A stretch of 64,000 nt of DNA, taken from NCBI GenBank assembly GCA_016719225.1, contig JADKAN010000004.1:578707-642706 (forward strand). Direction: 5' to 3'. Source of the DNA: Flavobacteriales bacterium (GTDB lineage Bacteria > Bacteroidota > Bacteroidia > Flavobacteriales_F > PHOS-HE28). The notes beneath the pieces are model-generated. The model was not told the origin of the DNA. It ran no database searches and was given only the letters and a program-made list of their open reading frames with translations. A program made the position numbers and the translations under genes. This document shows, piece by piece, positions 8,512 to 33,362 of the stretch (positions are counted from its first letter, which is position 1; each line of letters starts with the position of its first letter).

Positions 8512-8530
8512 ACATCTTGTCTTGACCGGT

Positions 8531-8575: not shown

Positions 8576-8597
8576 GAAGGCTCCTTCGGCAAGGCGC

Positions 8598-10156: not shown

Positions 10157-10181
10157 ATCGCATGGGCGAGATGTGCCTTGG

Positions 10182-12995
10182 TCAAAGGGTGTAGGTCAAT
10201 CCTCCCGTGATATAGGCACCTCGACGGAAACTGGTGATCACCGCGTCCGATCCGCCGATCCGACCATCCGCATTGCTGTCCTGCTGTAATAAGGTGCGTG
10301 TGTCCAAGATGTTCTGCAAGCCGAACTTCAAGGCAAAATGTTCTCCAAGGTCCTTGCCAATAGTGATGTCCAGCCCGTTGGCAGGCATCTCATAAATGTC
10401 CGGTGTTCCGAAACTGCCTACGGCGTAAAGACGCTTCCCGAAGGTGTTGTACATCACATTGAACTGGAATTTCGTAGCGCTATCCGTGTAGAACAAGCCG
10501 GCATTCACGACGTATGGACTTTGCCCCATCATCGGCCTGTTCTGGTCCTGGCCAACTGCATTTGCGCCCAAGGTGACCTTGCTGTTGATCAAGGTGCCGT
10601 TGAACAAAATGCCCATACGTTCCAGGATCCTGCTCTTCGTGAAGGGTGAGAAGGAGCGCCGTAGCTCCACTTCGGCACCGATACTTTGAGCGCTTTGCGC
10701 GTTTTTGTAAGTGAAGTTGCGCGTTCCACCCGACCCTGCACCCGGAACGAAGAACATTTCAATGGGGTCCGTGAACGATTTACGGAACACCCCAACGCTG
10801 AACACCTCGCCCATGTCCGGGTAAATTTCCAAGCGTGCATCCAGGTTGGCAATGGTCGCCGTGGTGAGTGCCGGATTTCCGTAGAGTACGTTGTTGCTGC
10901 TGAAGTCGTAGAAAGAGAAAGGAGCGAGCTCGCGGAATTCAGGCCGGTTGAGGGTGTTGCTCCAAGCCACGCGTACCAAGGAGCGCTCAGTGATGTTCCA
11001 GGATGCATTGACAGAGGGGAGCACATGGGTAAGGGGATTGTCCACGCGCACTTTTTCGCCGCCGTACGTGGCTCCGTCCAGCTCCTGCCTGTTGTGTTCC
11101 ACCCGCACCCCGCCGCTTAGCACGAACAACTTCGCCCACCTCACCGTGGTGCCTGCATAACCCGCGAACAAGGTGTTCGCAGCGGTGTAGCTGTCGCTCG
11201 GGTTGGTGCCTTCTTCCAGTTTGAAACCGTCGGTGCCGTTGATGTTCGCATCGCTAAAAATGGCATCGAGCGGAAGTGTGGCCAGCGCATTATTGAACTG
11301 TCCGGTATTGGCTTTGCGGAAGCTCATCCACCGGGCGCTGAAATCACGGTCTTTCCGCTCCGCAAGCCCACCCGCACGGACCACGGCGCGGAGGTCGCTG
11401 CCCGCTTTGCCCAAGTCCTGCGCTAGTCCCAGTTTGCCGGTAACGGTGCGTTCGTCCAGATCGCTGTAGAACCGGCCGGCATCAAGCGTGGACGCGGTGG
11501 GAGCGATCACCACTTGGAAAGGCGCATCATTTTCGCCGATGTTCCTAACAGTGCGCACCCGTCGGTAGTCCGGCTCTTTGCCGAGCGCGCGGCCGTAACC
11601 CAGCGTCCAATCCACGTGGCTGCGATCCTGCATCAGGTCGTGTTTGCCTTGGAGCTGCCCTGCATAAAGCGTGCGCTGGGTATAGTGGTATGCGAAGTTG
11701 CGCACGTCGAAACCTTCTTCCATGTTCTGTCCGGTCCGAACAGTGGTCTGGTTCTGACCAACTTGGTCGAACAGGTTGCGGAACTCCAATTTCGTTCCGG
11801 TACCGATCAATGCGCTCCAATTATGCATCACGCCCAAGCGGGCCGACCGGATGTTCTCTTGGTCGTTGTAGCGGTAAATGGTGTCGTTCTGTTGCGTGGC
11901 CGCATCGAATGCATTGTAGTTGTAGTTCTGCGCGACGTAACTGCTGCTGGTGTTGGACAGATCGATGGAGGTGACTGTGCCATACTGGTTCTTGGCATCT
12001 TCTTTTCCGTACCGGTGTGCTATTAATAGGCCGAAGCGTTGGTCCGGTCCGGCCATGCGGGATGTTGTGTTCCACGTGTTCGGAAGTTCACGGCCCAAGG
12101 TTGACAACCGGCTGGGGTCGTTCACGGTGTTCAAGTGTTCAGGAAAATCCGAAGGAAGGCTGCGCGACCCATTGTCGAAGCCCAGAAAGTCCGTCTTGCC
12201 GGTCTGGTCCATCTGCATGTCGTGGAACGTGGTTCCGCTCCGGATCCCCGTGCCATAGCTCACTTTTATCTCGTTCCGGCTTGGAACGCCCATCGTGGAA
12301 AGTTCGATGATGCCTCCTGCGAATTCACCCGGCAGTTCGGGTGCTCCGGTCTTGTAGACCATCATCCGGTCAAGGGCCCCGCTTGGCAAAAGATCGAAGC
12401 TGAACGCCTTGCGATCAGGCTCCATGCTCGGTGCCGTTACGCCGTTCAACAGGACGGTGTTGTACCGGTCAGCAAGGCCGCGCACCATCACGAAGCGGTC
12501 GCCTTGCAGCGTTACGCCCGGCACCCGCTTCACCACATCAGCAGCGGTGCGGTCCTGTCCCTTCGCGATCTGTTCGCGACCAACTCCGTTGGCCAATTGG
12601 TCGCTGTTGCGTACGGCCAACATCACTGCGCTCTCTGAAGATATGCGGCGTTCGCGTATTACCTGTACGGTTTCCATCTCCTGGCCGCCGTCCTGCAAGG
12701 GAATGTTCACCTGCACCGTACTACCGGCCGCTACGGAAACCAGTTTCTCCATATTGGGTCGGCCGACCAAGCTGACCACCAAAGTAATGTCGCCCGGTGG
12801 TGTAGTAATGCTGAAATGACCGTCAAGGTCGGTGCTTACCCCGGCTGAGGTGCCCTTCACAAGCACGTTGGCGAAAGGTTGTGGCTCTGCAGCCCCGTTC
12901 TCCATGGCCGTCACCAAACCTTCAATGCGGCCTGGTTGCGCGGTGAGTGTAGTGACCAGTAGAACGGAGAAGGCCAGCAGTATGGTACGGATCAT
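10182..12995 (-). CDS. TonB-dependent receptor with N-terminal CarboxypepD_reg-like domain
   Basis: 937 aa. Signal peptide MIRTILLAFSVLLVTTLTAQ. The reg-like domain reads IEGLVTA...VLVKGTSAGVSTDLDGHFSI. The plug reads VVKRVPGVTLQGDRFVMVRGLADRYN. A long barrel ends ...YITGGLTYTL. Confidence 0.9.
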   Translation of the reverse strand: MIRTILLAFSVLLVTTLTAQPGRIEGLVTAMENGAAEPQPFANVLVKGTSAGVSTDLDGHFSITTPPGDITLVVSLVGRPNMEKLVSVAAGSTVQVNIPLQDGGQEMETVQVIRERRISSESAVMLAVRNSDQLANGVGREQIAKGQDRTAADVVKRVPGVTLQGDRFVMVRGLADRYNTVLLNGVTAPSMEPDRKAFSFDLLPSGALDRMMVYKTGAPELPGEFAGGIIELSTMGVPSRNEIKVSYGTGIRSGTTFHDMQMDQTGKTDFLGFDNGSRSLPSDFPEHLNTVNDPSRLSTLGRELPNTWNTTSRMAGPDQRFGLLIAHRYGKEDAKNQYGTVTSIDLSNTSSSYVAQNYNYNAFDAATQQNDTIYRYNDQENIRSARLGVMHNWSALIGTGTKLEFRNLFDQVGQNQTTVRTGQNMEEGFDVRNFAYHYTQRTLYAGQLQGKHDLMQDRSHVDWTLGYGRALGKEPDYRRVRTVRNIGENDAPFQVVIAPTASTLDAGRFYSDLDERTVTGKLGLAQDLGKAGSDLRAVVRAGGLAERKDRDFSARWMSFRKANTGQFNNALATLPLDAIFSDANINGTDGFKLEEGTNPSDSYTAANTLFAGYAGTTVRWAKLFVLSGGVRVEHNRQELDGATYGGEKVRVDNPLTHVLPSVNASWNITERSLVRVAWSNTLNRPEFRELAPFSFYDFSSNNVLYGNPALTTATIANLDARLEIYPDMGEVFSVGVFRKSFTDPIEMFFVPGAGSGGTRNFTYKNAQSAQSIGAEVELRRSFSPFTKSRILERMGILFNGTLINSKVTLGANAVGQDQNRPMMGQSPYVVNAGLFYTDSATKFQFNVMYNTFGKRLYAVGSFGTPDIYEMPANGLDITIGKDLGEHFALKFGLQNILDTRTLLQQDSNADGRIGGSDAVITSFRRGAYITGGLTYTL

Positions 12996-13087
12996 TCGCT
13001 TCGTGGCCCAGGACGAAATGCCTGGAACACGGGCGCAAAGGACCGGTCCGCTTCTTACCCCCGCCTTGACCCGCGGTTAAGCTTGTG

Positions 13088-13876
13088 TTATGCCTTCATG
13101 GTTCCCGCCTTGCGGTCCCGGAAGGTGTGGCCTTTGATCGGTTCCTCCAAGAACCACCAGTTCGGGACCTCGCCCTTGCCGCCACGTTCCTTCCACATGT
13201 CCACCAGATTTTCCTGCAGCACCGCTGTGGCTTCCTCCTTGTTGTCGCAGACGTGTACGAAGCTTAATTCTTTTTCTCCAATGGTGCCTGCCCCGATCAT
13301 CTGCTCCAATTGTTCCAACATCGGCGCCCAGTATTTCCTACTGTAAAGAATGATGGGGAAACCCTTCACCTTGCCCGTTTGGATCAAGGTGACCGTCTCG
13401 AATAGTTCGTCCACAGTGCCTGCACCGCCGGGCATCACCACGAAACAGACGCTGTATTTCAGCAACAACACCTTGCGCACGAAGAAATGATCGAAAGTGA
13501 GGTCCACGTCCAGGTACGGGTTTGCGTACTGTTCATGCGGCAGTACGATGTTGCAGCCAACGCTTGTTGCACCCACATCGCGTGCGCCGCGGTTCGCGGC
13601 CTCCATTACGCCCGGTCCGCCGCCTGTCATGATGGTGAAGCCCACCCGGCCGACGCGCCGGGCAAGGGATCGCGTTTCTTCGTAGAACGGATGGTCTTCC
13701 TTGAATCGTGCACTGCCGAAGAACGTTACGCAGGGTCCTACGAAATGGAGCTTTCGAAAGCCATAAAAGAACTGCTGCGCAATGTGGAGAAGCGTTTTGA
13801 ATTCTCTCCACCGTGAGCGCGGGCCGCTGAGGAAGCTGAGGTCGATCTTCGAACGATCGATGTTTTTTGGGGCCAT
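13088..13876 (-). CDS. LOG-family (TIGR00730) Rossmann-fold nucleotide-binding protein
   Basis: Contains the motifs TGGGPGVMEAANRGA and PGGAGTVDELFE. Confidence 0.85.
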   Translation of the reverse strand: MAPKNIDRSKIDLSFLSGPRSRWREFKTLLHIAQQFFYGFRKLHFVGPCVTFFGSARFKEDHPFYEETRSLARRVGRVGFTIMTGGGPGVMEAANRGARDVGATSVGCNIVLPHEQYANPYLDVDLTFDHFFVRKVLLLKYSVCFVVMPGGAGTVDELFETVTLIQTGKVKGFPIILYSRKYWAPMLEQLEQMIGAGTIGEKELSFVHVCDNKEEATAVLQENLVDMWKERGGKGEVPNWWFLEEPIKGHTFRDRKAGTMKA

Positions 13877-14054
13877 GGGGCGAAGGTACCTTGGTACGTT
13901 GCGTGGTCACTTTGGTTCCTGCGAAGTTGTCAGGCTTCACCGGGGAATAAACGAGCTGCATCTTGAACGCATTGCTGGAACAACGAACATTCTGGCAGAC
14001 CTGACCTGTATATTTTCATGACTATTTGGTTTGAACTCAGGATCGGACCACGCG

Positions 14055-14062
14055 TAATTTTG
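14055..14062 (+). promoter_or_regulatory. Bacteroidetes sigma-A -7 box (TAATTTTG) 4 nt upstream of the ATG
   Basis: Exact match to the TAnnTTTG consensus. The ATG of the downstream gene is at 14067. Confidence 0.4.
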
Positions 14063-14066
14063 TGTT

Positions 14067-15599
14067 ATGAAACTCGGAAATACGATAGTGTTGGCGTGCA
14101 TAGTGGGTTTCGCCTCCCCTGCGGTTTTCAGCCAATCCGCTTTTGATGCGACTTACGATTTTGGTGACTATGGGTCGCAGATATATTATCCATCTTGCCC
14201 GGATGGAGAGGGTGGGTACCGGCTCTTCAGATTTAAAGCGACAGAAGGTGGTACACTTGGCGTGGTCGCACTTCATTTGAATGGTGTGGGAACCGAGTTG
14301 GATGCAATCGGATATACGGGGCAAGGAATGGGTGGTCCGCAGCAAGCGTTCCTAATGCCTGATTCCAGCACCGTACTTCGAGCAGATGCTTCCATCCTTA
14401 GGATTGATCGATCAGGGGAAATCGTTTCGTTGACGGGCCTGTTACCTGAACCAGGTCCCGGTTCCACAATGTGCATGGCCCCGGTCAACAATAATATCTG
14501 GGTGGCTATTAATGATGTTCAGGACTCTCCCGTCTATCATGAAGTGTTGAGGGTTCTTGAGATCGGCATGGACGGCTCGGTCCTGCAGCAACGCTCTTTC
14601 CACACTCCTTTTCCCCACCTTCAGTCAATATCCATACTGACTTTACCGGATTCTGGATTTGTTCTTGCAGGCAAGCTTGTCAATTCTGCAAGTGATAGCA
14701 TTTTGATCACCTCCTTCAGTAGTGATTTGGATAATAATTGGAGCAAGTCCGGACAAGTGAGCTTCGGCTCCGTTGCTCCTATCCAACTAACGAATTTGTC
14801 CGATAGCTCGTTTGCGGTGATCTGGGATGGGGACTTCGGTGGTCATGGAGGCTTACTGAAATTGGGAACGGACGGAGAAATGTTGTCATACCAAATGCAC
14901 AGCATGCCAGAACTTGGTGATGCAGAACCTCTTGCGGATGGTGGTTGGCTATTCCTGAACGGTTCCGATTTCGACCATTCAGTCATCCGGCACTTTAGCG
15001 TTGATGGCGCGCTGTTGGGAAGTGGCACTGTCTCTGGTCAGTGGCTTGGCCAGATCCACCCTGCTGCTCAACCCGGCTGGTGGGATGTGTTGTCCGGTAC
15101 CGCGAACGTACAATTGTCCATGGATCATTTCAATTTGCTGGATGGCACTTGTCTTGTACCGCCGATCTGGTCGGTTACCATGGAAATAAGCAGTATGGAA
15201 CTTGTGGATCTTCAGTTGGAAATGGATACCACTTCCATCACGTCGGTTCCAATGGGCTGCACTTCCTACCCGGTTAGCCTCACGCGCACTGTTGGGTGCG
15301 GCACCGCCGGGATTGAAGAACATGCTGCACGCCCTGCAGCGCGATGCGAACAGATGATGCACGCTGATGGCGGAAAAATTGCCGTGTTGATCGATATCGC
15401 AGCCACTGAGATCCCGAAGGTGCGACTATTGGACGCAATAGGAAGAGAGCTGCCGCACTCGAGGATGGAATGGAGTACACTTCACGGCAACACGCGCACC
15501 TTACGTTTTCAACAACCGCAGGCCAGCGGAATGGCGATCCTTCAGCTGGAAGGAAAGGAAGGTTCCGTAGGATGCAAGTTGATCCTTGGGTTGGAATAG
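14067..15599 (+). CDS. secreted hypothetical protein with probable T9SS C-terminal sorting domain (paralog of 16645..18210)
   Basis: Signal peptide MKLGNTIVLACIVGFASPAVFSQ. The C-terminal ~80 aa (KVRLLDAIGRELPHS...GMAILQLEGKEGSVGCKLILGLE) fits the T9SS CTD pattern. The N-terminal YDFGDYG..DGEGG aligns with the other paralog. Confidence 0.6.
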   Translation: MKLGNTIVLACIVGFASPAVFSQSAFDATYDFGDYGSQIYYPSCPDGEGGYRLFRFKATEGGTLGVVALHLNGVGTELDAIGYTGQGMGGPQQAFLMPDSSTVLRADASILRIDRSGEIVSLTGLLPEPGPGSTMCMAPVNNNIWVAINDVQDSPVYHEVLRVLEIGMDGSVLQQRSFHTPFPHLQSISILTLPDSGFVLAGKLVNSASDSILITSFSSDLDNNWSKSGQVSFGSVAPIQLTNLSDSSFAVIWDGDFGGHGGLLKLGTDGEMLSYQMHSMPELGDAEPLADGGWLFLNGSDFDHSVIRHFSVDGALLGSGTVSGQWLGQIHPAAQPGWWDVLSGTANVQLSMDHFNLLDGTCLVPPIWSVTMEISSMELVDLQLEMDTTSITSVPMGCTSYPVSLTRTVGCGTAGIEEHAARPAARCEQMMHADGGKIAVLIDIAATEIPKVRLLDAIGRELPHSRMEWSTLHGNTRTLRFQQPQASGMAILQLEGKEGSVGCKLILGLE

Positions 15600-15612
15600 A
15601 GTTGTGTCTGTA

Positions 15613-16527
15613 CTAAAGCACCACCAAACGCCTTGTCATTATTCCCGTGCCGTTAATTTCCAATTGGATAAAGTACACCCCGGCATGACCCAATGTGAAT
15701 GTTCCTGATGCTGGGATCGAATGTTCCAGCACCAACCGTCCACTGCTATCCAACAATCGTACATGTGCATCCACCATCCCCGGCGTTAACGTGATCGAAA
15801 TGTGCTGACCTGCGAACACTATGGAAGGCGAAACGGTGAAGCCTTCATTCCCGCCAAGTTCCTGAACTGCCGTTACGAGTCCACACTGCGGATATTGTGG
15901 GTTCAACCAAGAAATTGGCGGCGGAGGTGGTGGTTCCGGCATTGGGAAAATATTCTCCTCGTAACAACGAAGGCCATTGTAAGTCTCACCATCGCACGCA
16001 GCATAGATCCATGTGAAAGGCGCTGAACCGCCGAGCTGCTCCGTGATCACACCACCCAATGGGCAGAACAACTCCCATTGTCGTGAGCTTTGGTCAACGG
16101 TGAGCGTGCGCAAGGAAACGCCTCCAATGATCACATGGCCGGTATCCGAAACGGCCCAATCCAATGTGTCCCTGAACGCATCCTGGCTGATCGGTGTGGA
16201 CCATGTATCGCCCGGAACGGCATTCCAACGGAACAACAGTTGGTATTGCTGGAGGTCCTCATTGAAGTAGTACATGGAGTCGTTCGATACGCTGAAGTAA
16301 TGAACGACTTCGTAGCAGCCGAACCAGCCTGAAGCAGTGGTGACCTTGCTGCACAGCCTGCCGTTGACCACGGTGTCGGAGAGCACCTGCAATACGGCTA
16401 TAGTGCTATCGGGCCCGCAGCAGCTGCCTTGCGTGTAGGTCCATTGTGATCCGATCGGAGCGAACGGCGTTTGCCCATGCGAAGTGAAGTAAAAGAGGAG
16501 CGGAAGTATGAGCAGTGCGGTTCTCAT
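15613..16527 (-). CDS. secreted hypothetical protein with T9SS C-terminal sorting domain (paralog of 57855..58727)
   Basis: Signal peptide MRTALLILPLLFYFTSHGQ. CTD reads VRLLDSSGRLVLEHSIPASGTFTLGHAGVYFIQLEINGTGIMTRRLVVL. There is a poly-Pro linker PEPPPPPP. Confidence 0.65.
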   Translation of the reverse strand: MRTALLILPLLFYFTSHGQTPFAPIGSQWTYTQGSCCGPDSTIAVLQVLSDTVVNGRLCSKVTTASGWFGCYEVVHYFSVSNDSMYYFNEDLQQYQLLFRWNAVPGDTWSTPISQDAFRDTLDWAVSDTGHVIIGGVSLRTLTVDQSSRQWELFCPLGGVITEQLGGSAPFTWIYAACDGETYNGLRCYEENIFPMPEPPPPPPISWLNPQYPQCGLVTAVQELGGNEGFTVSPSIVFAGQHISITLTPGMVDAHVRLLDSSGRLVLEHSIPASGTFTLGHAGVYFIQLEINGTGIMTRRLVVL

Positions 16528-16644
16528 GGTCCATGGTGTGTGTGAATGTACACGCTCAGACAGCGGGAATGGGCTGAACGCTGTCTACTGTTCAACGACC
16601 GCTAGCTTTCCTTCTTTGTTCCTGGTCCTCTAATTTGCCCATCC

Positions 16645-18210
16645 ATGACACGCTTTACACCTTTGACCTGCATCGTCCTGCTCACGACCTTACACGGTGG
16701 CGGCGTGCAGGCGCAGGTCGTGTATGGAGCGCATTATGACGTGGGTTACAACAACGTTTCGTGGGTGCGCGGTGTTGCTGACGGCAATGGCGGGCTTGTG
16801 ATCAGTGCCCGGCCTATTGGCGACTCCGTGAATTTGTTCGCAAGTTCGATCCTTCACACGGACAACTTGGGGGAGGTTGCCAGCTTGATCTGCTACAACG
16901 ATGGCGGCTCCGATCTGATCACTTGCATGGAAAGGGCCAACAACGGGGACGTGGTCACGGGTTCGCTCACCTCCGGCCACTTCGACCAGCCCGAGGCGAC
17001 GGACATCATGCTTAGGAGGATCAAGCCGGATGGGACAGTGGCCTGGGCGAAAGCATATGCGGTAGTTGGTCAATACCACGCGGACCTATACGACATCGTT
17101 CAAACGCCATCCGGCTCTTTCATCGGTCTGGGCTCCTTTTCACAGGATGGAGGAGATGCCAAGCCACTTCTGTTCGGATTCACGGGTGCGGGGGAAGTGC
17201 TTTGGTCAAATGGTCTCCATACAGCCAATGGAAGCCTTCAATCCCTTTCGCTTACCCTCGATCCTGCGGGCGGAGTGATCGCCACAGGACGGTTCGCGGA
17301 TACGCCGAACAGCACGAAGATGTTGGTGATCCGTGCGGATACCACGGGCGTTATCAATTGGTCGCACTGGTATGGTTCAACAGGCTTTAACGAGGCCTCT
17401 ACGGTGCTGATCAGACCCGGCGGCGGATTGGCCATCTTGGGCAGTTTACAAGGTGCCAATGGAGCAGAAGGCGCGGTGGTCCGCACCGGACCGGATGGTA
17501 TGCCGATCTCTATGTTCGGTTGGGGGAGTCATATTCAGAACGGGCATGTTTTCAATGATGGTTCCGTGATGGTCCTGTGCGGGGGTTACGACGCGGGAAC
17601 CGCGATCGCGCGCATTGATACCAATAATACCATCCAATGGTCCACGTTGTTGAGCGCCACGCCATGGGGCGATCTGGTGCCTTTCGTAGGAGGTACACGC
17701 TTCGCGTATATCTCATCGGAAATGTTCAGTGACGTCACCGTGAACACGTTCACTGACCAATGCGAAACCTGTAACGCGGACCCGGTTCCTTTCACCGTGG
17801 TCACTACGACCTGGGCGGCTGATGGCTCCCCGGATGTGTATGCGCTCCCGGTGAACATGGCGAGCACCGATCTATTCATGGTGCCGACACCTGTGAACGC
17901 CAATATGTCGCCGGAATGCATGTTGGTGGTGGGCGTGCAACAACACGTCAAACCTGATATGGCTGCATTGAAGTGCGCTTTCACTCCGTCAAACAACGAG
18001 TTATCATTGGAGGGTGCGATGCTCTCCGGTCGATCGATCGTTGTCAGCGATATGCTAGGCCGTCTATTGTTTCCGAATGTCGCTGTCGTGGTTCAGCCAA
18101 ATGAACGGTCCATCCGAACGCCACTGCCGGTCTATTTGGTGCCCGGCTATTACTTGGCTAAAGTGCTCCCAGGAGATGCTGTATGTGTATTCGTGGTCCC
18201 TCCCCAATAG
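16645..18210 (+). CDS. secreted hypothetical protein with probable T9SS C-terminal sorting domain (paralog of 14067..15599)
   Basis: Signal peptide MTRFTPLTCIVLLTTLHGGGVQAQ. The body contains repeated DG..V..G propeller-like units. CTD-like tail reads IVVSDMLGRLLFPN...GYYLAKVLPGDAVCVFVV. Confidence 0.6.
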   Translation: MTRFTPLTCIVLLTTLHGGGVQAQVVYGAHYDVGYNNVSWVRGVADGNGGLVISARPIGDSVNLFASSILHTDNLGEVASLICYNDGGSDLITCMERANNGDVVTGSLTSGHFDQPEATDIMLRRIKPDGTVAWAKAYAVVGQYHADLYDIVQTPSGSFIGLGSFSQDGGDAKPLLFGFTGAGEVLWSNGLHTANGSLQSLSLTLDPAGGVIATGRFADTPNSTKMLVIRADTTGVINWSHWYGSTGFNEASTVLIRPGGGLAILGSLQGANGAEGAVVRTGPDGMPISMFGWGSHIQNGHVFNDGSVMVLCGGYDAGTAIARIDTNNTIQWSTLLSATPWGDLVPFVGGTRFAYISSEMFSDVTVNTFTDQCETCNADPVPFTVVTTTWAADGSPDVYALPVNMASTDLFMVPTPVNANMSPECMLVVGVQQHVKPDMAALKCAFTPSNNELSLEGAMLSGRSIVVSDMLGRLLFPNVAVVVQPNERSIRTPLPVYLVPGYYLAKVLPGDAVCVFVVPPQ

Positions 18211-18468
18211 GAATCAGCGGACCATTCATATTCGGCCTGTCGATCTTGGATTCCCTTCTAAAAAGTGGCAGGATGGAACGGTAGGCTGGAAGATTCTCCG
18301 TTGCTGTCCCTGATGTGTTCATGGGTTCGCAAAACGCGGAATTGTGCGGTTCAGCTTTTGTCCGGATGAAAGGCAACAGGTGGCTCATCTTGATAGCGAA
18401 GATCCAAGCGATGTGGTTCTTGTGCCAAAGGCATCGATCTTCTACACGCTGCTCCCCTGCCCTTTAAT

Positions 18469-21400
18469 TCACGCCGCCACGCTCAACACGCCCTCCAACG
18501 CCTCCTTCGCCTGCTTCATATTCTTCACGTCACCCACGGAAAGCCGCAACGTGCCGTTCTTTTCGTAAACCTTGAACTTGCGTGGCTGCTGCTGCACGGA
18601 ACGCAGGATCGCCGTGAAGATCTCGCTTCCAAAGAAGGGGTGTTTCTGATCGGTGATGAAGGTGCCGATGAGCTTGCCCTGCTTCAATTTCATTTTCTCC
18701 AAGCCCAGCCGTTCACCGCTCCAACGTAGGCGGATCGCTTCCATCAGTTCCTGCACTTGGTCGGGGACCGGGCCGAAGCGGTCAGCTATGGATGCGCTGA
18801 ACTTTTCCAGTTCCTCTGCATCTTTCAAGTTGTCCAACTCGCGATAGAGCGCGAGGCGCTCGGCCGTTTCACTGACATAATCATTGGGGATCATCATGCG
18901 CAGGTCGGTCTCCAGGATGCAGTCGTCGGCGCGGTAGCGGGTGGCACCGCGCGCAAGCTGGCGGTCCTCGAAGAGCTCCTTGAAATGTTCGTCCTTCAGT
19001 TCGCGCACGGCTTCCTCGAGGATCTTGTGGTAGGTCTCGAAGCCGATGTCGTTGACGAAGCCGCTTTGTTCCGCGCCGAGCAAGTCTCCCGCACCACGGA
19101 TGTCAAGATCCTTCATGGCGATGTGGATCCCGCTGCCGAGATCGCTGAACTGCTCGATCGCTTGCAGGCGCTTGCGTGATAGATCCGGCAAGAGGTGCGG
19201 ACTGGGTGCGAGAAGATATGCGAATGCTTTCTTGTTGCTGCGTCCCACGCGACCGCGTAGCTGGTGCAGGTCGCTGAGCCCGAAGTTCTGCGCCTCGTTC
19301 ACGATGATCGTGTTTGCGTTCGGGATGTCGAGGCCGTTCTCCACGATGGTGGTGCAAACGAGCACGTCGCTCTCTCCTTCGATGAAGTCCATCATTACGG
19401 ATTCGAGCTTGTGGCCTTCCAGCTGGCCGTGACCCACGCTTACGCGCGCACCCGGCACCAGTTTGCGGATCATGCCCGCGATGAACTCGATGTTCTTCAC
19501 CTTGTCGTTGATGAAGTAGACCTGTCCACCACGTGAAAGCTCATATTCGATCGCGTCCTTGATCACCACTTCGTCGTAAGGATGCACATTGGTCTGCACC
19601 GGATAGCGGTTGGGCGGCGGCGTGCTGATGATGCTGAGATCGCGCGCGCCCATCAGGCTGAACTGCAGCGTGCGCGGGATCGGTGTGGCGGTGAGCGTGA
19701 GCGTGTCCACCGTGGCGCGCAACGTCTTCAACTTGTCCTTCACGTTCACACCGAACTTCTGCTCCTCATCGATGATCAGCAGGCCGAGGTCCTTGTACTT
19801 CACATCCTTGCTCACCAAGCGATGCGTGCCGATGAGGATGTCGATCTTTCCTTCCCTGACGTCGGCGAGGATCTGCTTTTGGTCGGCCGGGCTGCGGAAG
19901 CGATTGATGTAGTCCACGCGCACGGGCAATCCCTTCATTCGCGCAGTGAAGGTCTTCCAGTGTTGTAGGGCGAGGATCGTTGTGGGAACCAGCACGGCGA
20001 CCTGTTTGCTATCGCAAACCGCCTTGAAGGCCGCGCGGATCGCCACCTCCGTCTTTCCGAAACCGACGTCGCCGCAGACGAGCCGGTCCATCGGAACCGG
20101 CTTTTCCATGTCGTGCTTCACATCCGCGGTGGCCTTTTCCTGATCGGGCGTGTCCTCGTAAATGAAGCTGGCCTCAAGTTCGGTCTGTAGGTAATTGTCG
20201 GGTAGGAAGGCGAACCCGGGCTTGCTCTTGCGCTGTGCATATAGCTTGATCAAGTCGAAGGCGAGGGCCTTCACCTTGGCCTTCGTCTTGTCCTTCAAGT
20301 TCCTCCACGCAGGACTTCCGAGCTTGCTGATGTTCGGCGCCGCACCACTTTCCTCACCGCTGAACTTGCTTACGCGGTGCAGGCTGTGGATGCCGACATA
20401 GAGAATGTCGTTGTCGCGGTATTTCAGGCGGATCGCCTCCTGCATCTGTCCGCCCGCATCGATCGTCTCCAAACCACTGAAGATGCCAATGCCATGGTCG
20501 ATGTGTACCACGAGGTCACCGGGCTTCAGCTGCGTCAGCTCCTTCAGCGTAAGCGCCTGGGAGTTCTTGCGGAACCCTTCCTTCAACCGGAAGCGATGGT
20601 AGCGCTCGAAGATCTGGTGATCGGTGTAGAGTGCGAGTTTCAGTTCGCCGTCGATAAAACCTTCGTGAAGATCCAGTACCAAGGGCGTGAAGGACACTTC
20701 ATGCTCCATGTCGCGGAAGATGGAGTAGAGGCGTTCGCTCTGCTTGGCGCCATTGCACGCGATCAGGTTGGCGAAGCCGGCGTTCTGCTTGTTGTGCAGG
20801 TCGCCGCTGAGGATCTTGAAGTCCTTCGCGAACGGTGGTTGCGGACGTTGGGTGAAATCGATGTTGACAGCCTCCAGCTTAAAGCCATCAGCCTCAAGCT
20901 TGCGGCTTGGAGCTTGCGGCTTGTGGCTGGAGCCCCAGAATACTTTACGGAATCCCAACAATCCCTTGATCAACTCGCTATCACTGGCCAACAGTTCATC
21001 CGGTTTGGCATGCTTGGATTTTTCCGGCGTCCGTGTGTAGGCATCGCTTAACAATTGCAACGACTTCACCGCCGCATCACTGATCGCCTTCGGGTCGCTG
21101 AGCCAGATCACTGCATCGGCCGGCAGTTGCGCGAAGAAGGTCTGTTGCTCTGCCGTGTCCTCATCCTGCAGGTCGGGGACGATCACCGCTTCGGCAAGTC
21201 GCTCCACACTGAGCTGGTCCTGCGGATCGAAGCGCCGAACACTCTCCACGGTATCACCATAGAGTTCGATGCGGAAGGGCTTATCGTTACCGTAGCTGAA
21301 AATGTCCACAATGCCACCGCGGATACTGAACTGCCCCGGCTCGTAAACGAACTCCACGCGCTGAAAGCCGGTTTCGTGCAGCCATTCCTCCAAGGTGTCG

Positions 21401-21897
21401 ATCGGAAGTTCCTCGTTGCGCTTGATCGCCAACGTATTCTTCTGCAACTTTTCCTTTCCCACTACCAGCGGTACCAAAGCCTCGGGATAGGTGACGATGG
21501 TGAGCTGTGAAGTATCCTGCGCTTTTTGAAGGGTCATCAGCGTCTCCAGCACTTCTGTGCGGGTTACGCGATCGCCGTCCTGGTGGCCTTCGGGGTCGTA
21601 AGGTGAACGCGAAGGAGCCGGGAAGAACAGCATGGCGTTCTTCCGGGATTCCTTTTCATCCTTCGGTTGTAACGCCTCCAGATCATTCATGAAGTATGCC
21701 GCCTCCTCCTTGTCGCCGAGGATGAACACATGCGTTCCACCGCGCTTCTCACGGATGGCATTGACTGCAAGCGAGCGGCCGCTGCCCACCAAGCCGCTCA
21801 GGCGGATACGCGCAGTTGGTGCTACCAAGGCTTCCGCTGCTTGCTTGCTGCGTGGGTCGTTGGCAAAGAGGGAAAGGAGGTCGTAGAGGGAGGTCAT
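18469..21897 (-). CDS. mfd: transcription-repair coupling factor Mfd
   Basis: About 1140 aa. Contains the RNAP-interaction/CarD-like region (LKPGDLVVHIDHGIG), an SF2 helicase core (VCGDVGFGKTEVAIRAAF, LIIDEEQKFG, LTATPIPRTL, LRGRVGRS) and a TRCF C-terminal domain. The start is trimmed to MTSLYDLL (ATG at 21897). Confidence 0.95.
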   Translation of the reverse strand: MTSLYDLLSLFANDPRSKQAAEALVAPTARIRLSGLVGSGRSLAVNAIREKRGGTHVFILGDKEEAAYFMNDLEALQPKDEKESRKNAMLFFPAPSRSPYDPEGHQDGDRVTRTEVLETLMTLQKAQDTSQLTIVTYPEALVPLVVGKEKLQKNTLAIKRNEELPIDTLEEWLHETGFQRVEFVYEPGQFSIRGGIVDIFSYGNDKPFRIELYGDTVESVRRFDPQDQLSVERLAEAVIVPDLQDEDTAEQQTFFAQLPADAVIWLSDPKAISDAAVKSLQLLSDAYTRTPEKSKHAKPDELLASDSELIKGLLGFRKVFWGSSHKPQAPSRKLEADGFKLEAVNIDFTQRPQPPFAKDFKILSGDLHNKQNAGFANLIACNGAKQSERLYSIFRDMEHEVSFTPLVLDLHEGFIDGELKLALYTDHQIFERYHRFRLKEGFRKNSQALTLKELTQLKPGDLVVHIDHGIGIFSGLETIDAGGQMQEAIRLKYRDNDILYVGIHSLHRVSKFSGEESGAAPNISKLGSPAWRNLKDKTKAKVKALAFDLIKLYAQRKSKPGFAFLPDNYLQTELEASFIYEDTPDQEKATADVKHDMEKPVPMDRLVCGDVGFGKTEVAIRAAFKAVCDSKQVAVLVPTTILALQHWKTFTARMKGLPVRVDYINRFRSPADQKQILADVREGKIDILIGTHRLVSKDVKYKDLGLLIIDEEQKFGVNVKDKLKTLRATVDTLTLTATPIPRTLQFSLMGARDLSIISTPPPNRYPVQTNVHPYDEVVIKDAIEYELSRGGQVYFINDKVKNIEFIAGMIRKLVPGARVSVGHGQLEGHKLESVMMDFIEGESDVLVCTTIVENGLDIPNANTIIVNEAQNFGLSDLHQLRGRVGRSNKKAFAYLLAPSPHLLPDLSRKRLQAIEQFSDLGSGIHIAMKDLDIRGAGDLLGAEQSGFVNDIGFETYHKILEEAVRELKDEHFKELFEDRQLARGATRYRADDCILETDLRMMIPNDYVSETAERLALYRELDNLKDAEELEKFSASIADRFGPVPDQVQELMEAIRLRWSGERLGLEKMKLKQGKLIGTFITDQKHPFFGSEIFTAILRSVQQQPRKFKVYEKNGTLRLSVGDVKNMKQAKEALEGVLSVAA

Positions 21898-21898
21898 T

Positions 21899-22333
21899 TC
21901 AGGTTTGTCGCGCAACGTGCGACCAGTCGGAATGTTGATCCAGGAAGTGTTCGAATGTGGCGATGACTTCAGAAGGCTGGCAACTCGTTGACCACTGGCT
22001 GTTCTTCCCGATCTTCTCGGGTAGGAGGTCAGTGTCAGGCCAGGTCTTCAATTGCATGGAGACAAGCCGACCTATTTCATCATAAGCAATATGAAGCGTT
22101 CGCGCATGATCAACCTTCCCATCCACAGGAAGTGAAACAAGGAGGTCAAACAGGGATGTCCTCGGGAAGAGTGCCTTCGAGTAACCGGAATCGATGATGT
22201 GTTCGAGCAGCCAACGGAGACAGCGGTACTCAAGCTTTGCGTCGGTTATTTGGCGGTACTCGTCATTCACCTCCGTCCAATACGGAGTGAGGTCTTTCGG
22301 AATTACTTCACCTTCACAGAAATGCAGACCCAT
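21899..22333 (-). CDS. hypothetical protein (no recognisable domain), 1 nt upstream of the mfd start
   Basis: 144-aa ORF MGLHFCEGEVIPKDLTPYWTEVNDEYRQ.... Its stop (21899-21901) is separated by 1 nt from the mfd ATG (21897). It looks less GC-rich than mfd by eye. Confidence 0.5.
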   Translation of the reverse strand: MGLHFCEGEVIPKDLTPYWTEVNDEYRQITDAKLEYRCLRWLLEHIIDSGYSKALFPRTSLFDLLVSLPVDGKVDHARTLHIAYDEIGRLVSMQLKTWPDTDLLPEKIGKNSQWSTSCQPSEVIATFEHFLDQHSDWSHVARQT

Positions 22334-25909: not shown

Positions 25910-26965
25910 TCACCGGTAGGAGCTCTTCTCATCAACGCCCTCCACCATGTCAATATAACTGTTGTACCGGCTGGCTGCAAGATCGCCCTTTTCCACCGCT
26001 TCCAGAACAGCGCAGCCCGGCTCCTTCATGTGCTTGCAATTCCCGAAGCGGCATGCACTCTTCAACGCAAGGAATTCAGGGAACTGGTCCACGATCTCCG
26101 CTTGCGTCATGTCGACCAGGCCGAAGCCTTTTACGCCCGGCGTATCGATGATGAATGTGGGGGGGGAGTTGCCAGTTGTTAGTTGTCGGCTGTCAGGCGC
26201 ACTCCGCCCGGCCTCCGCAGGTTTGTCGCCGCTCAATGCAGCCTGCCCTGGGAACTGAGAACCGGGAACTGACAACTGTAATTCAAACATCTCCGCTGCC
26301 GTGGTGGTATGCTGGCCCTTGTCCGTGGAAGCACTGATCTCCCATGTGTGCAGGTCCAAGGCTGGATCGATGGCATTCACCAACGTGCTCTTGCCAACAC
26401 CGCTGTGCCCCACCAAAAGCGAGACGTTGCCTTTGAGCAGCTCTTTCACCTCCTCCATTCCCACATTCTTCAACGCGGATGTGATCAGCGTGCGGTAGCC
26501 GGCGGCTTGGTATACGTCCTCGTATTCCGCCAAGAGACCGAGTTCATCATCCTCATAATCGTCCACCTTGTTGAAGATGATGATCGGCGGAATGCGATAT
26601 GCTTCCGCCGTCACCAGCACCCTGTCGATGAATCCATAGGAAGTGCGGGGCCGGGCCAAGGTCACCAGCACCAAGCACTGGTCCATGTTGCTCGCGATAA
26701 CGTGCTTGTGGTGCGAGAGATTCACGGACTTCCGCACTAAATAGTTGCGTCTGTCGTGCAGTTCGGTTATCGCACCGATGATCTCGTTGCCGACTTTTTC
26801 CGCTGCCGGCTTGAATTCCACGATATCCCCTACGGCCAACGGATTGGTGCTACTGAACCCCTTGATGCGCAGCTTTCCTTTTGCGACGCAGGTGTGCAGC
26901 ACGCCGTCCTCACCGCGCACGATGTAGCGGCTGCCATTGGAACGCATGAGAAGGCCGGTGGACAT
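25910..26965 (-). CDS. rsgA: ribosome small-subunit-dependent GTPase A, carrying a ~40-aa in-frame insertion
   Basis: Contains an OB-fold N-terminus, G4 (FNKVD), G1 (LVGHSGVGKSTL), G2 (GQHTTT), G3 (IDTPGVKGF) and a zinc knuckle (C.FGNCKHMKEPGC). The start is trimmed to MSTGLLMRSNG. See the finding on 26159..26284. Confidence 0.9.
   Translation of the reverse strand: MSTGLLMRSNGSRYIVRGEDGVLHTCVAKGKLRIKGFSSTNPLAVGDIVEFKPAAEKVGNEIIGAITELHDRRNYLVRKSVNLSHHKHVIASNMDQCLVLVTLARPRTSYGFIDRVLVTAEAYRIPPIIIFNKVDDYEDDELGLLAEYEDVYQAAGYRTLITSALKNVGMEEVKELLKGNVSLLVGHSGVGKSTLVNAIDPALDLHTWEISASTDKGQHTTTAAEMFELQLSVPGSQFPGQAALSGDKPAEAGRSAPDSRQLTTGNSPPTFIIDTPGVKGFGLVDMTQAEIVDQFPEFLALKSACRFGNCKHMKEPGCAVLEAVEKGDLAASRYNSYIDMVEGVDEKSSYR
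26159..26284 (-). mobile_element. MITE-like palindromic low-complexity element inserted in-frame in rsgA
   Basis: The coding strand reads CAGTTGTCAGTT...(centre)...AACTAACAACTG-GCAACT-CCCCCCCC. The terminal 12-mers pair at 11/12 positions as inverted repeats, and an inner CAGG/CCTG pair extends the stem. The insert is about 120 nt, has no stop codon, and encodes QLSVPGSQFPGQAALSGDKPAEAGRSAPDSRQLTTGNSPP. Confidence 0.5.
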
Positions 26966-27074
26966 TGTTCTATCGCCGATGTGATCTTGCGTGATGAGCG
27001 GCAAAGATCGCTTGAATTGAAGGAGTGATCATGAGGGTAATAGGCCGTAGCTGTAGCAGTCCTATGCCAGGCGC

Positions 27075-30699: not shown

Positions 30700-31962
30700 A
30701 TGCCATACCTCTTCACCTCCGAAAGCGTAAGCGAAGGACATCCTGACAAGGTCGCCGATCAGATCAGTGATGCCCTCATCGATCACTTCCTCGCTTTCGA
30801 CCCCGAAAGCAAAGTGGCCTGCGAAACATTGGTGACCACCGGGCAGGTGATACTTGCCGGCGAGGTGAAGAGCAACGCATACCTGGACGTGCAGCAGATC
30901 GCTAGGGAAGTGATCCGCCGCATCGGCTACACGCGCAGCGAGTACATGTTCGAAGCCGATTCCTGCGGGGTGCTCAGCGCCATTCACGAGCAAAGCCCCG
31001 ACATCAACCAAGGTGTGATGCGCAAGAAGCCCGAGGACCAGGGCGCGGGCGACCAGGGCATGATGTTCGGTTACGCCTGCCGCGACACGGATTCCTACAT
31101 GCCGCTTGCGTTGGACCTGAGCCATCGGTTGCTGCAGGAGCTCGCCGCGATCCGCCGCGAGAAGAATTCCAAAATGCCCTACCTGCGTCCTGACGCGAAA
31201 AGCCAAGTGACCATCGAGTACGGGGATGACCACACTCCTTTGCGCATCGACGCCATCGTGATCAGTACCCAGCACGATGATTTTGATACCGAGCCGAAGA
31301 TGTTGGCGAAGATCAAGAAGGATGTGCTGGAGATCCTTATCCCCCGCGTAAAGAAGCAGCTCTCCAAGCGGGTCCAAGCCCTCTTCAACGACAAGATCCA
31401 ATACCACATCAACCCCACCGGCAAGTTCGTTATCGGCGGACCGCACGGCGATACCGGCCTCACCGGCCGTAAGATCATCGTTGATACTTACGGAGGCAAG
31501 GGTGCGCACGGCGGTGGTGCCTTCAGCGGGAAGGATCCGAGCAAGGTGGACCGCAGCGCTGCCTATGCAGCACGGCACGTGGCCAAGAATTTGGTCGCAG
31601 CCGGTGTTTGCGACGAAGTACTGGTGCAGGTTGCCTATGCCATCGGCGTGGCCAAGCCCGTTGGCTTTTACGTGAACACCTATGGGACCGCTAAAGTGAA
31701 GATGAACGATGGCAAGATCGCAAACATCTTGACGGGCATGAAGGAGCTGGACATGCGTCCGTACTTCATCGAGCAGCGCTTCAACCTGCGCACGCCTATT
31801 TACAGCGAGACCGCCGCATACGGACACATGGGCCGCACGCCACGCACCGTGACCAAGAAGTTCGATAACGCAGGTAAGCAGGTCACGGTGAAGGTGAAGC
31901 TCTTCCCTTGGGAGGAATTGGATGCCGTGCCGTCCTTGAAGAAGGCTTTCGGGATCAACTAG
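30700..31962 (+). CDS. metK: S-adenosylmethionine synthase
   Basis: [25 protein letters not shown]..., [36 protein letters not shown]. Confidence 0.97.
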
Positions 31963-32099
31963 TTGTCATACTGCTAGCCCCTTCAGTATTCGTGGCAGGT
32001 ACGAAGGCGTTCCGAGCGATCACGCGATCACTTTCCACCTTTAACCTTCCATCAAACCCGCTGTGGCTCCGGAGGTGAGTGTCGGAACCGGGGTTCGAA

Positions 32100-32161
32100 A
32101 GTGCACGGAACTCCCTGACAACTAACAACTCACCACTAACAACTGACCAAGTTGTTTGTCG
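32100..32161 (+). repeat. low-complexity ACAACT-type repeat module sharing a 14-mer with the rsgA insert
   Basis: GACAACTAACAACT at 32117-32130 is the exact reverse complement of 26174-26187. It is followed by CACCACTAACAACTGACCAAGTTGTTTGTCGG, which contains a local ACAACT/AGTTGT hairpin. Confidence 0.4.
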
Positions 32162-32204
32162 GATCATAAAGAAGCACTACTTTCGCACCCCATTTTCAGG
32201 AACC

Positions 32205-32726
32205 ATGTACGCCATTGTAGAGATCGCCGGGCAGCAATTCAAGGTGCAAGCCCCCCAAAAACTGAAAGTCCACCGGCTTGAGCTGGAGGAAGGCAAACAC
32301 GTGGAGCTCGGCAACGTGCTGCTCGTAAGCCATGATGGCAAGACCAGCATTGGTACGCCCATGGTGGACGGTGCCCGCATCGCTGCGAAGGTGCTGGTGC
32401 ACAGCAAAGGTGATAAGGTCCTGATCGGCAAGAAGAAACGTCGCAAAGGCTACCAGAAGGTGAACGGCCATCGCCAATACCTCACCGAGCTTTGGATCGA
32501 AGCGATCCTGGCGAAAGGCGAGAAGTTCGATGCCAGCAAGAGCACGGCTCCTGCGGTCGTCCCTTACGCTCCTGCGGTTAAGAAGACCCGTGCAACGGTG
32601 GAAGCCGCTCCGGTTAAGAAAGCCCCGGCCAAAAAGGCACCGGCAAAGAAAGTGGCCGCCAAAAAGGCTCCTGCCAAGAAGGCGGCGGCAAAGAAGGCAG
32701 CTCCTAAAAAGGACGATAAGAAATAA
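32205..32726 (+). CDS. rplU: 50S ribosomal protein L21 with ~70-aa Lys/Ala/Pro-rich C-terminal extension
   Basis: The start is trimmed to MYAIVEIAGQQFKV (ATG at 32205). The L21 core runs through ...GHRQYLTELWIE. The tail then reads ...VKKAPAKKAPAKKVAAKKAPAKKAAAKKAAPKKDDKK. Confidence 0.9.
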   Translation: MYAIVEIAGQQFKVQAPQKLKVHRLELEEGKHVELGNVLLVSHDGKTSIGTPMVDGARIAAKVLVHSKGDKVLIGKKKRRKGYQKVNGHRQYLTELWIEAILAKGEKFDASKSTAPAVVPYAPAVKKTRATVEAAPVKKAPAKKAPAKKVAAKKAPAKKAAAKKAAPKKDDKK

Positions 32727-32762: not shown

Positions 32763-33362
32763 ATGGCACACAAGAAAGGAGCAGGTAGTACGCAGAACGG
32801 TCGCGAGTCCCACTCGAAGCGCCTCGGCGTTAAAATTTACGGGGGCAGTGTCGCCGTAGCAGGAAACATCATCGTACGCCAACGCGGCACCCACCACCAT
32901 GCGGGCCGTAACGTTGGTGTAGGTGTGGACCACACTCTATACGCACTTACGAGCGGTATCGTGGAATTCCGTCGCAAGCGCGACAACAAGAGCTACGTGA
33001 GCGTGTTGCCCGAAGGCATGGCCACCACGTTCCGCGGCCAAGGCGTGAAAGGACAGATGGCCGCAGCGGCTCCTGCGCCAAAGGCTGCAGCCAAAGCCGC
33101 TAAGGCAACAAAGGCCGACGACCTGAAGAAGGTGGAAGGCATCGGCCCGAAGATCGCCGAGCTCTTCAATGAAGCTGGTATCAACAGCTTCGCTGAACTT
33201 GCAGCTACTTCCGTGGATAAGCTGAAGGGCATCCTCGAAGCCGCAGGGTCGCATTTCGCATCGCACGATCCCGGCACGTGGCCCAAGCAGGCCGAACTCG
33301 CTGCCGCAGGCAAGTGGGACGAGCTGAAGACGTGGCAGGATGAGCTGAACGGCGGCAAGTAA
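32763..33362 (+). CDS. rpmA: 50S ribosomal protein L27 fused to a C-terminal Ala/Lys linker and helix-hairpin-helix module
   Basis: The L27 core [38 protein letters not shown]... covers about the first 85 aa. With no stop codon, the ORF continues ...[49 protein letters not shown]...[28 protein letters not shown]. Confidence 0.85.

Follow-up and report, generated by a model that had tools for sequence, protein, structure and literature searches.

In a 64,000-nt stretch of Flavobacteriales bacterium DNA (contig JADKAN010000004.1; hereafter, the window), the gene rsgA carries an in-frame segment of palindromic DNA built from tandem 7-nt repeats (heptads). On balance, we consider it probable that this segment belongs to a clade-wide family of mobile or convertible palindromic heptad-repeat cassettes, which act at the DNA level, are selfish or neutral, and are not an evolved feature of the protein. 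Each cassette consists of two inverted heptad arrays around a short variable center, and the cassettes occupy a few permissive hot spots, including the tip of a β-hairpin between the G2 and G3 motifs of RsgA, a linker in Mfd, and the spacer between metK and rplU, among others. Sequence comparisons point clearly to gain, loss, and replacement of cassettes at these hot spots on a strain-level time scale. The same comparisons indicate change by slippage of heptad units (within genes, only multiples of three heptads, i.e. 21 nt or 7 aa, survive), by inversion of the center between the arms, by decay, and by deletion, with arm families that are common to several loci, including two protein genes. 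We suggest that a mechanism acting in trans, with a preference for hairpins already in place, copies at least the arms, or perhaps whole cassettes, from one locus to another; such a preference would explain both the reoccupied sites and the newer arrays nested in older arm remnants.

The host gene and the parts of its cassette are located as follows.

25910 to 26965, minus strand: rsgA (ribosome small-subunit-dependent GTPase A), probable ATG start at 26965, 351 aa.
26162 to 26278, minus strand: in-frame palindromic heptad-repeat cassette, 117 nt, 39 codons, QLSVPG...TTGNSP, no stop codon.
26255 to 26278, minus strand: 5′ arm (coding strand), CAGTTGT CAGTTCC CGGTTCT CAGTTCC, i.e. degraded (CAGTTGT)n heptads.
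26197 to 26254, minus strand: cassette center, homologous to the centers of loci L001 and L003 and inverted in L002; outside rsgA, no copy was found.
26173 to 26196, minus strand: 3′ arm (coding strand), CTGACAGCCG ACAACTA ACAACTG, i.e. (ACAACTR)n heptads with no in-frame TGA or TAA.
26159 to 26166, minus strand: C8 homopolymer at the 3′ junction of the cassette (G8 on the plus strand), partly made of host Pro codons and C5 to C6 in relatives.

The open reading frame (ORF) of rsgA spans 25910 to 27004 on the minus strand and opens at a TTG at 27004, but its orthologs begin at the Met equivalent to the ATG at 26965. It reads ...GQHTTTAAEMFEL QLSVPGSQFPGQAALSGDKPAEAGRSAPDSRQLTTGNSPP TFIIDTPG.... 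The protein scored 211 bits against TIGR00157 (cut-off 100), with the insert splitting the match into two stretches, and both RsgA_GTPase (165 bits) and RsgA_N from Pfam matched. The circularly permuted G motifs (NKVD at residues 132 to 135, GHSGVGKS at 186 to 193, HTTT at 219 to 222, and DTPG at 274 to 277) and the zinc knuckle (C305, C310, H312, and C318) were invariant across 49 orthologs. On these matches, we assign the host protein to the RsgA/YjeQ GTPases. An earlier reading of the DNA, made from the sequence alone, had named the gene as the essential gene rsgA; the identity stands, but the adjective does not, as rsgA is important yet not strictly essential in Escherichia coli or Bacillus subtilis.

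We compared the site across 80 genomic loci obtained by homolog search (labeled L) and across protein orthologs (labeled P). The RsgA proteins of the clade are 56 to 99% identical to that of the window, and all come from metagenome-assembled genomes (MAGs) of uncultured “Flavobacteriales bacterium.” Aligning short with long rsgA alleles placed the boundaries of the window's cassette between the host codons GAA TTA (E-L) and CCC ACA TTC (P-T-F), which puts it between the G2 threonines (HTTT) and G3 (DTPG). Its 39 codons translate to QLSVPGSQFPGQAALSGDKPAEAGRSAPDSRQLTTGNSP. The distance from HTT to DTPG is 52 residues in the window protein vs. 15 in 35 of 36 loci from outgroup Flavobacteriales and 16 in the remaining one, and a stretch of 43 residues in the window protein corresponds to 6 in E. 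coli RsgA. Within the clade, the spacing ranges from 20 to 57 residues in the genomic loci and from 15 to 68 in 120 database orthologs, and it is 20 to 68 over the proteins of 56 to 99% identity. All the features that the sequence-only reading had listed are there in the DNA. It had correctly recognized an extra segment between G2 and G3 whose length is a multiple of three and which is free of stop codons. It was also right about the adjoining C8 run, about the inverted repeats at the ends, which are longer than it had noted (24-nt arms at 26255 to 26278 and 26173 to 26196, with 79% complementarity), and about the periodicity of the arms, in which Tandem Repeats Finder (TRF) reported a 14-nt unit, equal to two heptads, at 26250 to 26276. 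A single recent insertion into this genome did not hold up: the site is filled across the clade by varied cassettes that are replaced at the strain level.

The window's own cassette, taken alone, did not fold significantly better than shuffled sequence: its RNA fold had z = −1.37 against 200 shuffles, 21 of which were as stable, and a second estimate gave z = −1.7. This poor folding can be traced to two heptads that changed from GT to CC without compensation. Its orthologs are the cassettes of L001 and L003, to which it can be aligned in both arms and center, and L001 reads CAGTTGT CAGTTGT CGGTTCT CAGTTGT at the site of the 5′ arm. By this comparison, the window's copy is a decayed member of the family. 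Because its own copy folds no better than shuffles, the statistical weight of the hairpin rests on its relatives. There, folding was much stronger in the individual cases of L001 (z = −5.1) and L002 (z = −8.3). Over 32 loci, the mean z was −2.7, with 18 below −2 and the most extreme value at L024 (−9.3); the arms of L001 reach up to 31 nt, of which 29 are paired.

The inserted amino acid sequence was not conserved among orthologs, while a common DNA design was evident in the long inserts: a hairpin in which both arms are tandem 7-nt repeats separated by a short center. The repeat unit itself differs between lineages. The heptad CAGTTGT/ACAACTG is found in the rsgA cassettes of the window, L001 to L003, L007, L008, L011, L017, and L020; GGCGAGT in L024, L026, and L027; GGGCGTAGTTCG in L006, L012, and L014 (CGTAGTT is among the clade heptads); and GAGCCAC in L018, L023, and L025. 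Decayed GTGAGTC heptads are present in L004, L005, and L013, and two heptads were seen in single loci (GCTGGCN in L082 and GGCCAAT in L034). In 754 kb of clade DNA, we counted 38 tandem arrays of period 7, 20 of them outside rsgA, vs. 0 to 8 arrays for each of the other periods from 4 to 12. Long hairpins (arm ≥ 20 nt, ≥ 85% paired) with period-7 arms numbered 18 in the same DNA, comprising 11 in rsgA and 7 in intergenic regions, and none was found in 595 kb of outgroup DNA. An ordinary conserved loop without other copies, which the sequence-only reading had held open as the contrary outcome, is therefore not what the relatives display: the amino acids vary and the DNA architecture persists.

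Translation appears to filter these cassettes only for frame and for the absence of stop codons. The reading frame was kept in 43 of 44 clade rsgA loci. The exception, L028 (L028:10648-10800), comes from a nanopore MAG in which a frameshift at the poly-C run equivalent to the window's C8 splits rsgA, which is probably a sequencing error; a slippage-prone poly-C run inside rsgA is notable even so. In all three frames, forward ACAACTG repeats run into TGA. The triplet following CAAC was TGA or TAA in 0 of 14 in-phase and 12 of 30 out-of-phase cases within rsgA cassettes, as against 279 of 289 cases in arrays elsewhere. SQFPGQAALSGDK is an example of the peptide expected from translating a cassette. 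These frame and stop constraints also led us to reject an intein or intron, as they indicate that the segment is translated. In a structure predicted with AlphaFold2 from a 49-sequence alignment (mean predicted local distance difference test score [pLDDT] 71.5), residues 234 to 265 had pLDDT values of 28 to 42 and no secondary structure, lying between strands 225 to 229 and 270 to 274. The prediction thus makes the cassette a disordered tip on the β-hairpin after switch I, in line with a position at the surface of the protein.

The most direct view of turnover comes from nearly identical alleles. Apart from their inserts, of 56 and 8 aa, respectively, P0095 and P0115 are 100% identical. P0073 and P0077 carry unrelated cassettes although only 2 residues set the rest of the two proteins apart, and the same pattern of near-identical proteins with unrelated cassettes was seen for P0074 and P0096. 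At the DNA level, the flanks of alleles with swapped cassettes diverged at 14 of 1,250 and 13 of 1,221 positions (∼1.1%), and these single-nucleotide polymorphisms (SNPs) were not clustered beside the swapped block. The allele junctions fall at the base of the hairpin, between ...GAACTGAGCC and CGGCCCCCACCTTC..., and the junction codons are constant, with GAR YTN before the cassette and CCN ACN TTC after it. Identical copies of one cassette allele were recovered from independent sources, an NCBI MAG (L082) and a JGI metagenome (L083), which argues against an assembly artifact. On a tree of the RsgA core (the protein minus its insert), cassette types were scattered and incongruent, with short “empty” alleles among long ones.

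Smaller changes within cassettes were also legible. An exact 21-nt (three-heptad) deletion, bounded by CAGTTGT|CAG, separates the window from the 96%-identical L206 and has the signature of replication slippage. Only when reverse-complemented does the 52-nt center of L002 match those of L001, L003, and the window (77 to 79% vs. 54 to 62%), and BLAST returned minus-strand matches with E values down to 4 × 10−7; this flip reads as an inversion between the arms, with the ORF open both ways. As recombination between the arms explains this single flip, an invertase shufflon was rejected. In L006, L009, and L010, outer CAGTTG remnants enclose arrays of another heptad, a sign of nested replacement.

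A second protein gene of the window hosts the same kind of segment.

18469 to 21915, minus strand: mfd (transcription-repair coupling factor), with UvrB_inter, CarD_TRCF_RID, DEAD, Helicase_C, and TRCF domains.
20869 to 20934, minus strand: second in-frame palindromic cassette, 66 nt, CAAGCCN heptads, peptide GSSHKPQAPSRKLEADGFKLEA, in the Mfd linker.

This cassette lies between the UvrB-interaction and RID domains. TRF assigned a period of 7 or 14 to 20897 to 20928, and the fold of the cassette DNA had z = −2.36. Mfd orthologs of the clade carry other cassettes or none at this point of the linker, and outgroups carry none. The two genes share arms across genomes: the mfd cassette of L208 and the rsgA cassette of L209 agree at 56 of 70 nt, and both have four units per arm, with the unit variants in much the same order, and the mfd cassette of L210 and the rsgA cassette of L211 have near-identical arms (local score 52, compared with 13 to 29 for unrelated cassette pairs). 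In both pairs, the arms match and only the loops differ. The orthologous mfd cassette of L004 (14309-14374) brings an in-frame TAA and a frameshift, so that gene calling splits mfd into two ORFs. The database entries for close Mfd homologs include many “partial” calls of 600 to 780 aa on long contigs; these calls may reflect breakage by cassettes as in L004, or assembly errors at palindromes.

Heptad arrays also occur between genes, and the window has one such array upstream of rplU.

32115 to 32165, plus strand: intergenic heptad array ACAACTA ACAACTC ACCACTA ACAACTG with a short inverted partner AGTTGTTTGT, ∼40 to 90 nt upstream of the rplU ATG at 32205.

This array and the 3′ arm in rsgA have the 14-mer GACAACTAACAACT in common (32117 to 32130 in the window), and TRF gave it a period of 7 or 14 at 32118 to 32149. 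Its (ACAACTR)4 part, in forward orientation, lies ∼60 to 90 nt ahead of the rplU ATG. Within the metK-rplU spacer (31955 to 32191), a 13-nt inverted repeat (32090 to 32102 and 32179 to 32191) encloses the array; separately, a palindrome, CAACTAGTTG, overlaps the metK stop codon. The spacer is occupied elsewhere too, with (ACAACTR)n arrays in L001, L004, and L028, a heptad hot spot in L022 as well, and, in L027, a GGCGAGT-type array that has the heptad of that locus's own rsgA cassette. A known structured RNA, including a ribosomal-protein leader in the rplU spacer, was rejected, since an Rfam scan at gathering thresholds of the window and six loci matched no family. The spacer upstream of the gene for an extracytoplasmic function (ECF) sigma factor holds different heptads in L001, L002, and L028. 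Across the dataset, heptads from rsgA and from other loci formed 37 pairs with at most one mismatch, where 5.8 were expected and shuffles gave 13 at most; orthologous arrays, not being independent, inflate the count of 37 to some degree.

Several observations weigh against mobile or convertible cassettes. A search of the window and 1.35 Mb of related loci found no second copy of the cassette or of its 52-nt center, although the heptads of its arms recurred. Since recurrence is limited to the arms, and matching copies in different genes have different loops, the data do not demonstrate simple cut-or-copy transposition of a fixed element. For the same reason, the original description of a miniature inverted-repeat transposable element (MITE)-like element fits only in part: the DNA is palindromic and has related repeats elsewhere, but a full-length second copy is lacking. 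The compared allele junctions showed no consistent direct repeat or target-site duplication and no conserved terminal motif; the 10 window ORFs scanned against Pfam included no transposase, and no RAYT was among the inspected genes adjoining arrays. The genomes are metagenome assemblies, so chimeric assembly across conserved flanks is possible for any single contig. The inflation of the repertoire statistic belongs here as well, as does the spread of the main heptad beyond the clade: exact (YAGTTGT)3 arrays were present in at least 120 metagenome contigs, and the 80 that were fetched ranged from 33% to 68% GC. The recurrence of CAGTTGT in organisms of such different composition may in part reflect a mutational preference, with slippage-prone heptads, rather than mobility.

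A purely local origin would accommodate much of this. Under such a scheme, nothing moves between loci: the site is a fragile palindrome where slippage generates heptad arrays in place, and template switching within the molecule supplies or corrects the opposite arm. The clean three-heptad event between the window and L206 fits it, as do the loops that differ between otherwise matching cassettes, the absence of a transposase or target-site duplication in our searches, and the new arrays nested in old ones, which would follow from repeated events at the hairpin tip; heptanucleotides are moreover reported to be the most slippage-prone class of long simple sequence repeats in bacteria (Mrazek 2007, as summarized in PMC4679880). 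We nonetheless rate a local origin as unlikely, if worth serious consideration. It would not predict that unrelated loci and genomes draw on a limited set of heptads (the 37 pairs vs. 5.8 expected), that mfd and rsgA arms agree in the number and order of their units, or that unrelated cassettes sit in flanks diverged by only ∼1%, which point mutation and slippage cannot yield. Nor does local selection explain why CAGTTGT is common in rsgA although its complement gives an in-frame TGA. Apparent turnover could instead be old diversity, in which homologous recombination across conserved flanks mostly reshuffles preexisting rsgA alleles between strains or species. The incongruence of insert types with the core tree, their recurrence across subclades, and highly conserved flanks that favor short conversion tracts all speak for such exchange, and it probably contributes to the distribution alongside the main explanation. 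As the principal cause it is improbable: no cluster of imported SNPs lies beside the swapped blocks, the origin of the differing alleles is left unexplained, and so is the presence of the same cassette families in mfd and in intergenic spacers.

Selection for a function would have to act on the nucleic acid or on the protein. A hairpin in rsgA could tune mRNA translation or decay, or form a regulator site as has been proposed for TAACTGA repeats, and it would make sense of a folding potential that is kept while the sequence changes; the forward array upstream of rplU likewise echoes the bias of TAACTGA repeats toward positions upstream of translation genes (PMC4679880). We find such a function very doubtful given the cassette-free alleles in otherwise identical genes, the many decayed copies (including the window's, with z of about 0 to −1.7), the recurrence of the architecture in mfd and unrelated spacers, and the lack of an Rfam match in the scan described above. 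An ordinary lineage-specific protein loop, selected for its amino acid sequence, has in its favor that a segment is present at the RsgA site throughout the clade, and is otherwise barely credible: the amino acid sequence is not conserved, the extra length varies from 0 to ∼50 residues even between identical proteins, the segment is predicted to be disordered, and palindromic DNA with a 7-nt periodicity has no rationale at the protein level. We also rejected a diversity-generating retroelement, since varying lengths and unrelated sequences exclude A-specific mutagenesis.

Returning to cassettes that are mobile or convertible, one speculative route, which we would call a long shot, is that they are written at recurrent break sites, where the tip of a palindrome is cleaved, the same short templated repeat is added to both 3′ ends, and the ends are joined. 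This would produce (heptad)n, a junction, and (reverse-complement heptad)n, and hence conserved arms, unique loops, and nesting within older arms. If true, it would amount to a bacterial repair activity that adds repeats, akin to telomere healing followed by fusion, with translated scars in essential genes. A milder alternative is that mobile elements of a new class, with tandem-heptad ends, target hairpins. Telomerase-like addition would be expected to leave the G-rich strand in the 5′ arm every time; as only about 5 of 8 families fit, we dropped this point as evidence.

Heptanucleotide tandem repeats are known from several groups, the short tandemly repeated repetitive (STRR) heptamers of cyanobacteria among them. 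TAACTGA repeats have been described in Beggiatoaceae, cyanobacteria, and a few Bacteroidetes (PMC4679880). Their likeness to the arrays described here is close: they are tandem 7-nt units, and a single base separates CAACTGA/TCAGTTG of the window from TAACTGA/TCAGTTA; read in one orientation, the units have stops in every frame, and in the other they give LSV..-type peptides; arrays lie upstream of ribosomal-protein genes, and the equivalent spacers of close relatives have or lack them. The two differ in layout. TAACTGA arrays lie mostly between genes or at gene ends and are almost all direct, with 169 direct sets vs. 1 indirect in BOGUAY (PMC4679880), whereas the cassettes are inverted hairpin pairs in the middle of conserved domains, with heptad families exchanged at a fixed site. 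Only the rplU-upstream array matches the direct, intergenic, forward-upstream-of-start layout; the rsgA and mfd copies do not. The novelty for Bacteroidota that had been suggested must therefore be narrowed, as heptamer tandem repeats were already reported in some Bacteroidetes, though not as in-frame palindromes (PMC4679880).

In behavior, the cassettes resemble the Rickettsia palindromic elements (RPEs), which are described as palindromes of ∼100 to 150 nt in-frame in unrelated conserved protein genes (Ogata et al. 2000, reviewed in PMC10969869). As the sequence-only reading had anticipated, palindromic repeat DNA is kept in-frame in a protein gene, and empty sites exist in relatives. The in-frame palindromes in rsgA and mfd are likewise translated and sit at places that the fold tolerates, and RPE genomes likewise hold several families, as the review's account of them has it (PMC10969869). 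By the same account, however, RPE families keep full-length sequences and peptides, with stable insertions that different species share as orthologs (PMC10969869). Here, only the heptad arms recur, centers are unique, peptides vary, sites are reoccupied at the strain level, and the host belongs to Bacteroidota and not Rickettsiales, so the likeness is one of behavior. In anatomy, the cassettes are nearer to REPINs, which also have inverted conserved arms, a less conserved spacer, and a long hairpin, as seen in the mfd/rsgA pairs (PMC3116915, PMC3337134). REPINs form genome-specific families, are nonautonomous, are presumed to be mobilized in trans by RAYTs, and have been observed to excise (PMC3116915, PMC3337134). 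They are extragenic, their REP arms have GTAG/CGTC heads, and a REP-flanked RAYT gene defines the system, whereas the window's rsgA cassette is intragenic and contains no GTAG or CGTC tetranucleotide. MITEs (Correia/NEMIS, ERIC, BOX, and RUP; PMC10969869) are comparable in being short, noncoding by origin, bounded by terminal inverted repeats, and capable of in-frame fusions; they differ in that we found neither a target-site duplication nor a full-length multicopy consensus for the cassettes, whose arms are internally tandem-repetitive. A Pfam scan of 10 window ORFs found no cognate insertion sequence.

By analogy, then, the cassettes are closest to RPEs in behavior, to REPINs in anatomy, and to heptanucleotide tandem repeats in their building block, and by defining features the rsgA and mfd cassettes belong neither to the MITEs, nor to the REPINs, nor to the direct TAACTGA-type arrays. 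They are best described as palindromes of an RPE/REPIN-like kind made up of heptamer repeats, a phenomenon that takes in the mfd copy and the rplU array as well as the rsgA copy. The literature open to search, outside which most subscription journals lie, reported neither in-frame palindromic heptad cassettes in rsgA or mfd nor strain-level exchange of cassettes at a fixed codon position. Conserved housekeeping proteins of a free-living Bacteroidota clade carry translated hairpin repeat DNA whose copies are swapped from strain to strain at fixed positions; in-frame selfish DNA of such a kind was earlier tied mainly to Rickettsia. One architecture joins heptanucleotide tandem repeats with palindromic REP/RPE-like elements, both of them classes that are poorly understood. 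The natural before-and-after allele pairs, at ∼1% flank divergence, could reveal the mechanism of insertion or replacement, and a dedicated enzyme that writes or moves the cassettes, if one is truly at work, would represent a new DNA-manipulating activity. In practical terms, the cassettes produce length-variable disordered loops, disrupt gene calls in long-read assemblies, and might be usable as strain markers.

Further heptad arrays were seen near rsgA and elsewhere in the clade. In L024, which also bears a GGCGAGT cassette within rsgA, a hairpin with 29-nt arms of GGTTGGG/CCCAACC units (telomere-like G-rich heptads) and a 102-nt loop lies directly upstream of the rsgA start (L024:9800-9959). 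Long direct arrays of up to ∼10 units are located at L001:3450-3518, L001:4301-4331, L011:11039-11093, L014:15981-16026, and L018:1534-1639, with the units (GGGAGTC)n, (AGTTCGC)n(GGTTCGG)n, (GGAAGTC)n, and (GAGAGAY)n in L001, L011, L014, and L018. They adjoin stop codons on the 3′ side or start codons on the 5′ side, and one of them, in L011, starts ∼16 nt past the rsgA stop. The hairpin at L019:16603 was set aside as an in-frame case, as the 693-aa ORF across it looks like a spurious antisense frame and the hairpin falls between a stop codon and the next ATG. A period-7 array at 40181 to 40209 of the window was likewise discarded, as it lies in a hexapeptide-repeat (LbH) protein whose own repeat explains it.

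Outside the clade, nonpalindromic heptad arrays are present in the cultured outgroup Flavobacterium croceum DSM 17960 (L067), where five period-7 arrays of four heptads occur at 8158 to 18757, within 21 kb. Its rsgA has no insert, and none of the five arrays forms a long hairpin. Among the metagenome contigs, L099, L100, L120, L157, and L155, from unrelated organisms of 42 to 68% GC, have perfect intergenic hairpins of (CAGTTGT)3–4 and (ACAACTG)3–4 with 5- to 40-nt loops. L090 (47% GC) has an ORF of 3,005 aa, cut by the contig end, with an in-frame QLSVVSCQL encoded by (CAGTTGT)3 at residue 2874, possibly a further translated heptad insertion, here in an unrelated organism. Most of the other “long ORFs” across CAGTTGT arrays in these matches look spurious (Arg/Gly-rich, high-GC) and were not taken as evidence of in-frame arrays.

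Two ribosomal-protein genes downstream of the rplU array were also noted for their C-termini. L21 (32205 to 32726, plus strand) ends in a Lys/Ala/Pro-rich tail of ∼70 residues, encoded by 15/30-nt tandem repeats at 32616 to 32699 (AKKAPAKK...). The rpmA ORF (32763 to 33362, plus strand, 199 aa) fuses L27 (residues 2 to 81) to a C-terminal helix-hairpin-helix (HHH_5) domain (residues 119 to 156); in L206, a close relative, an HHH_5 protein is called as a separate gene of 101 aa.

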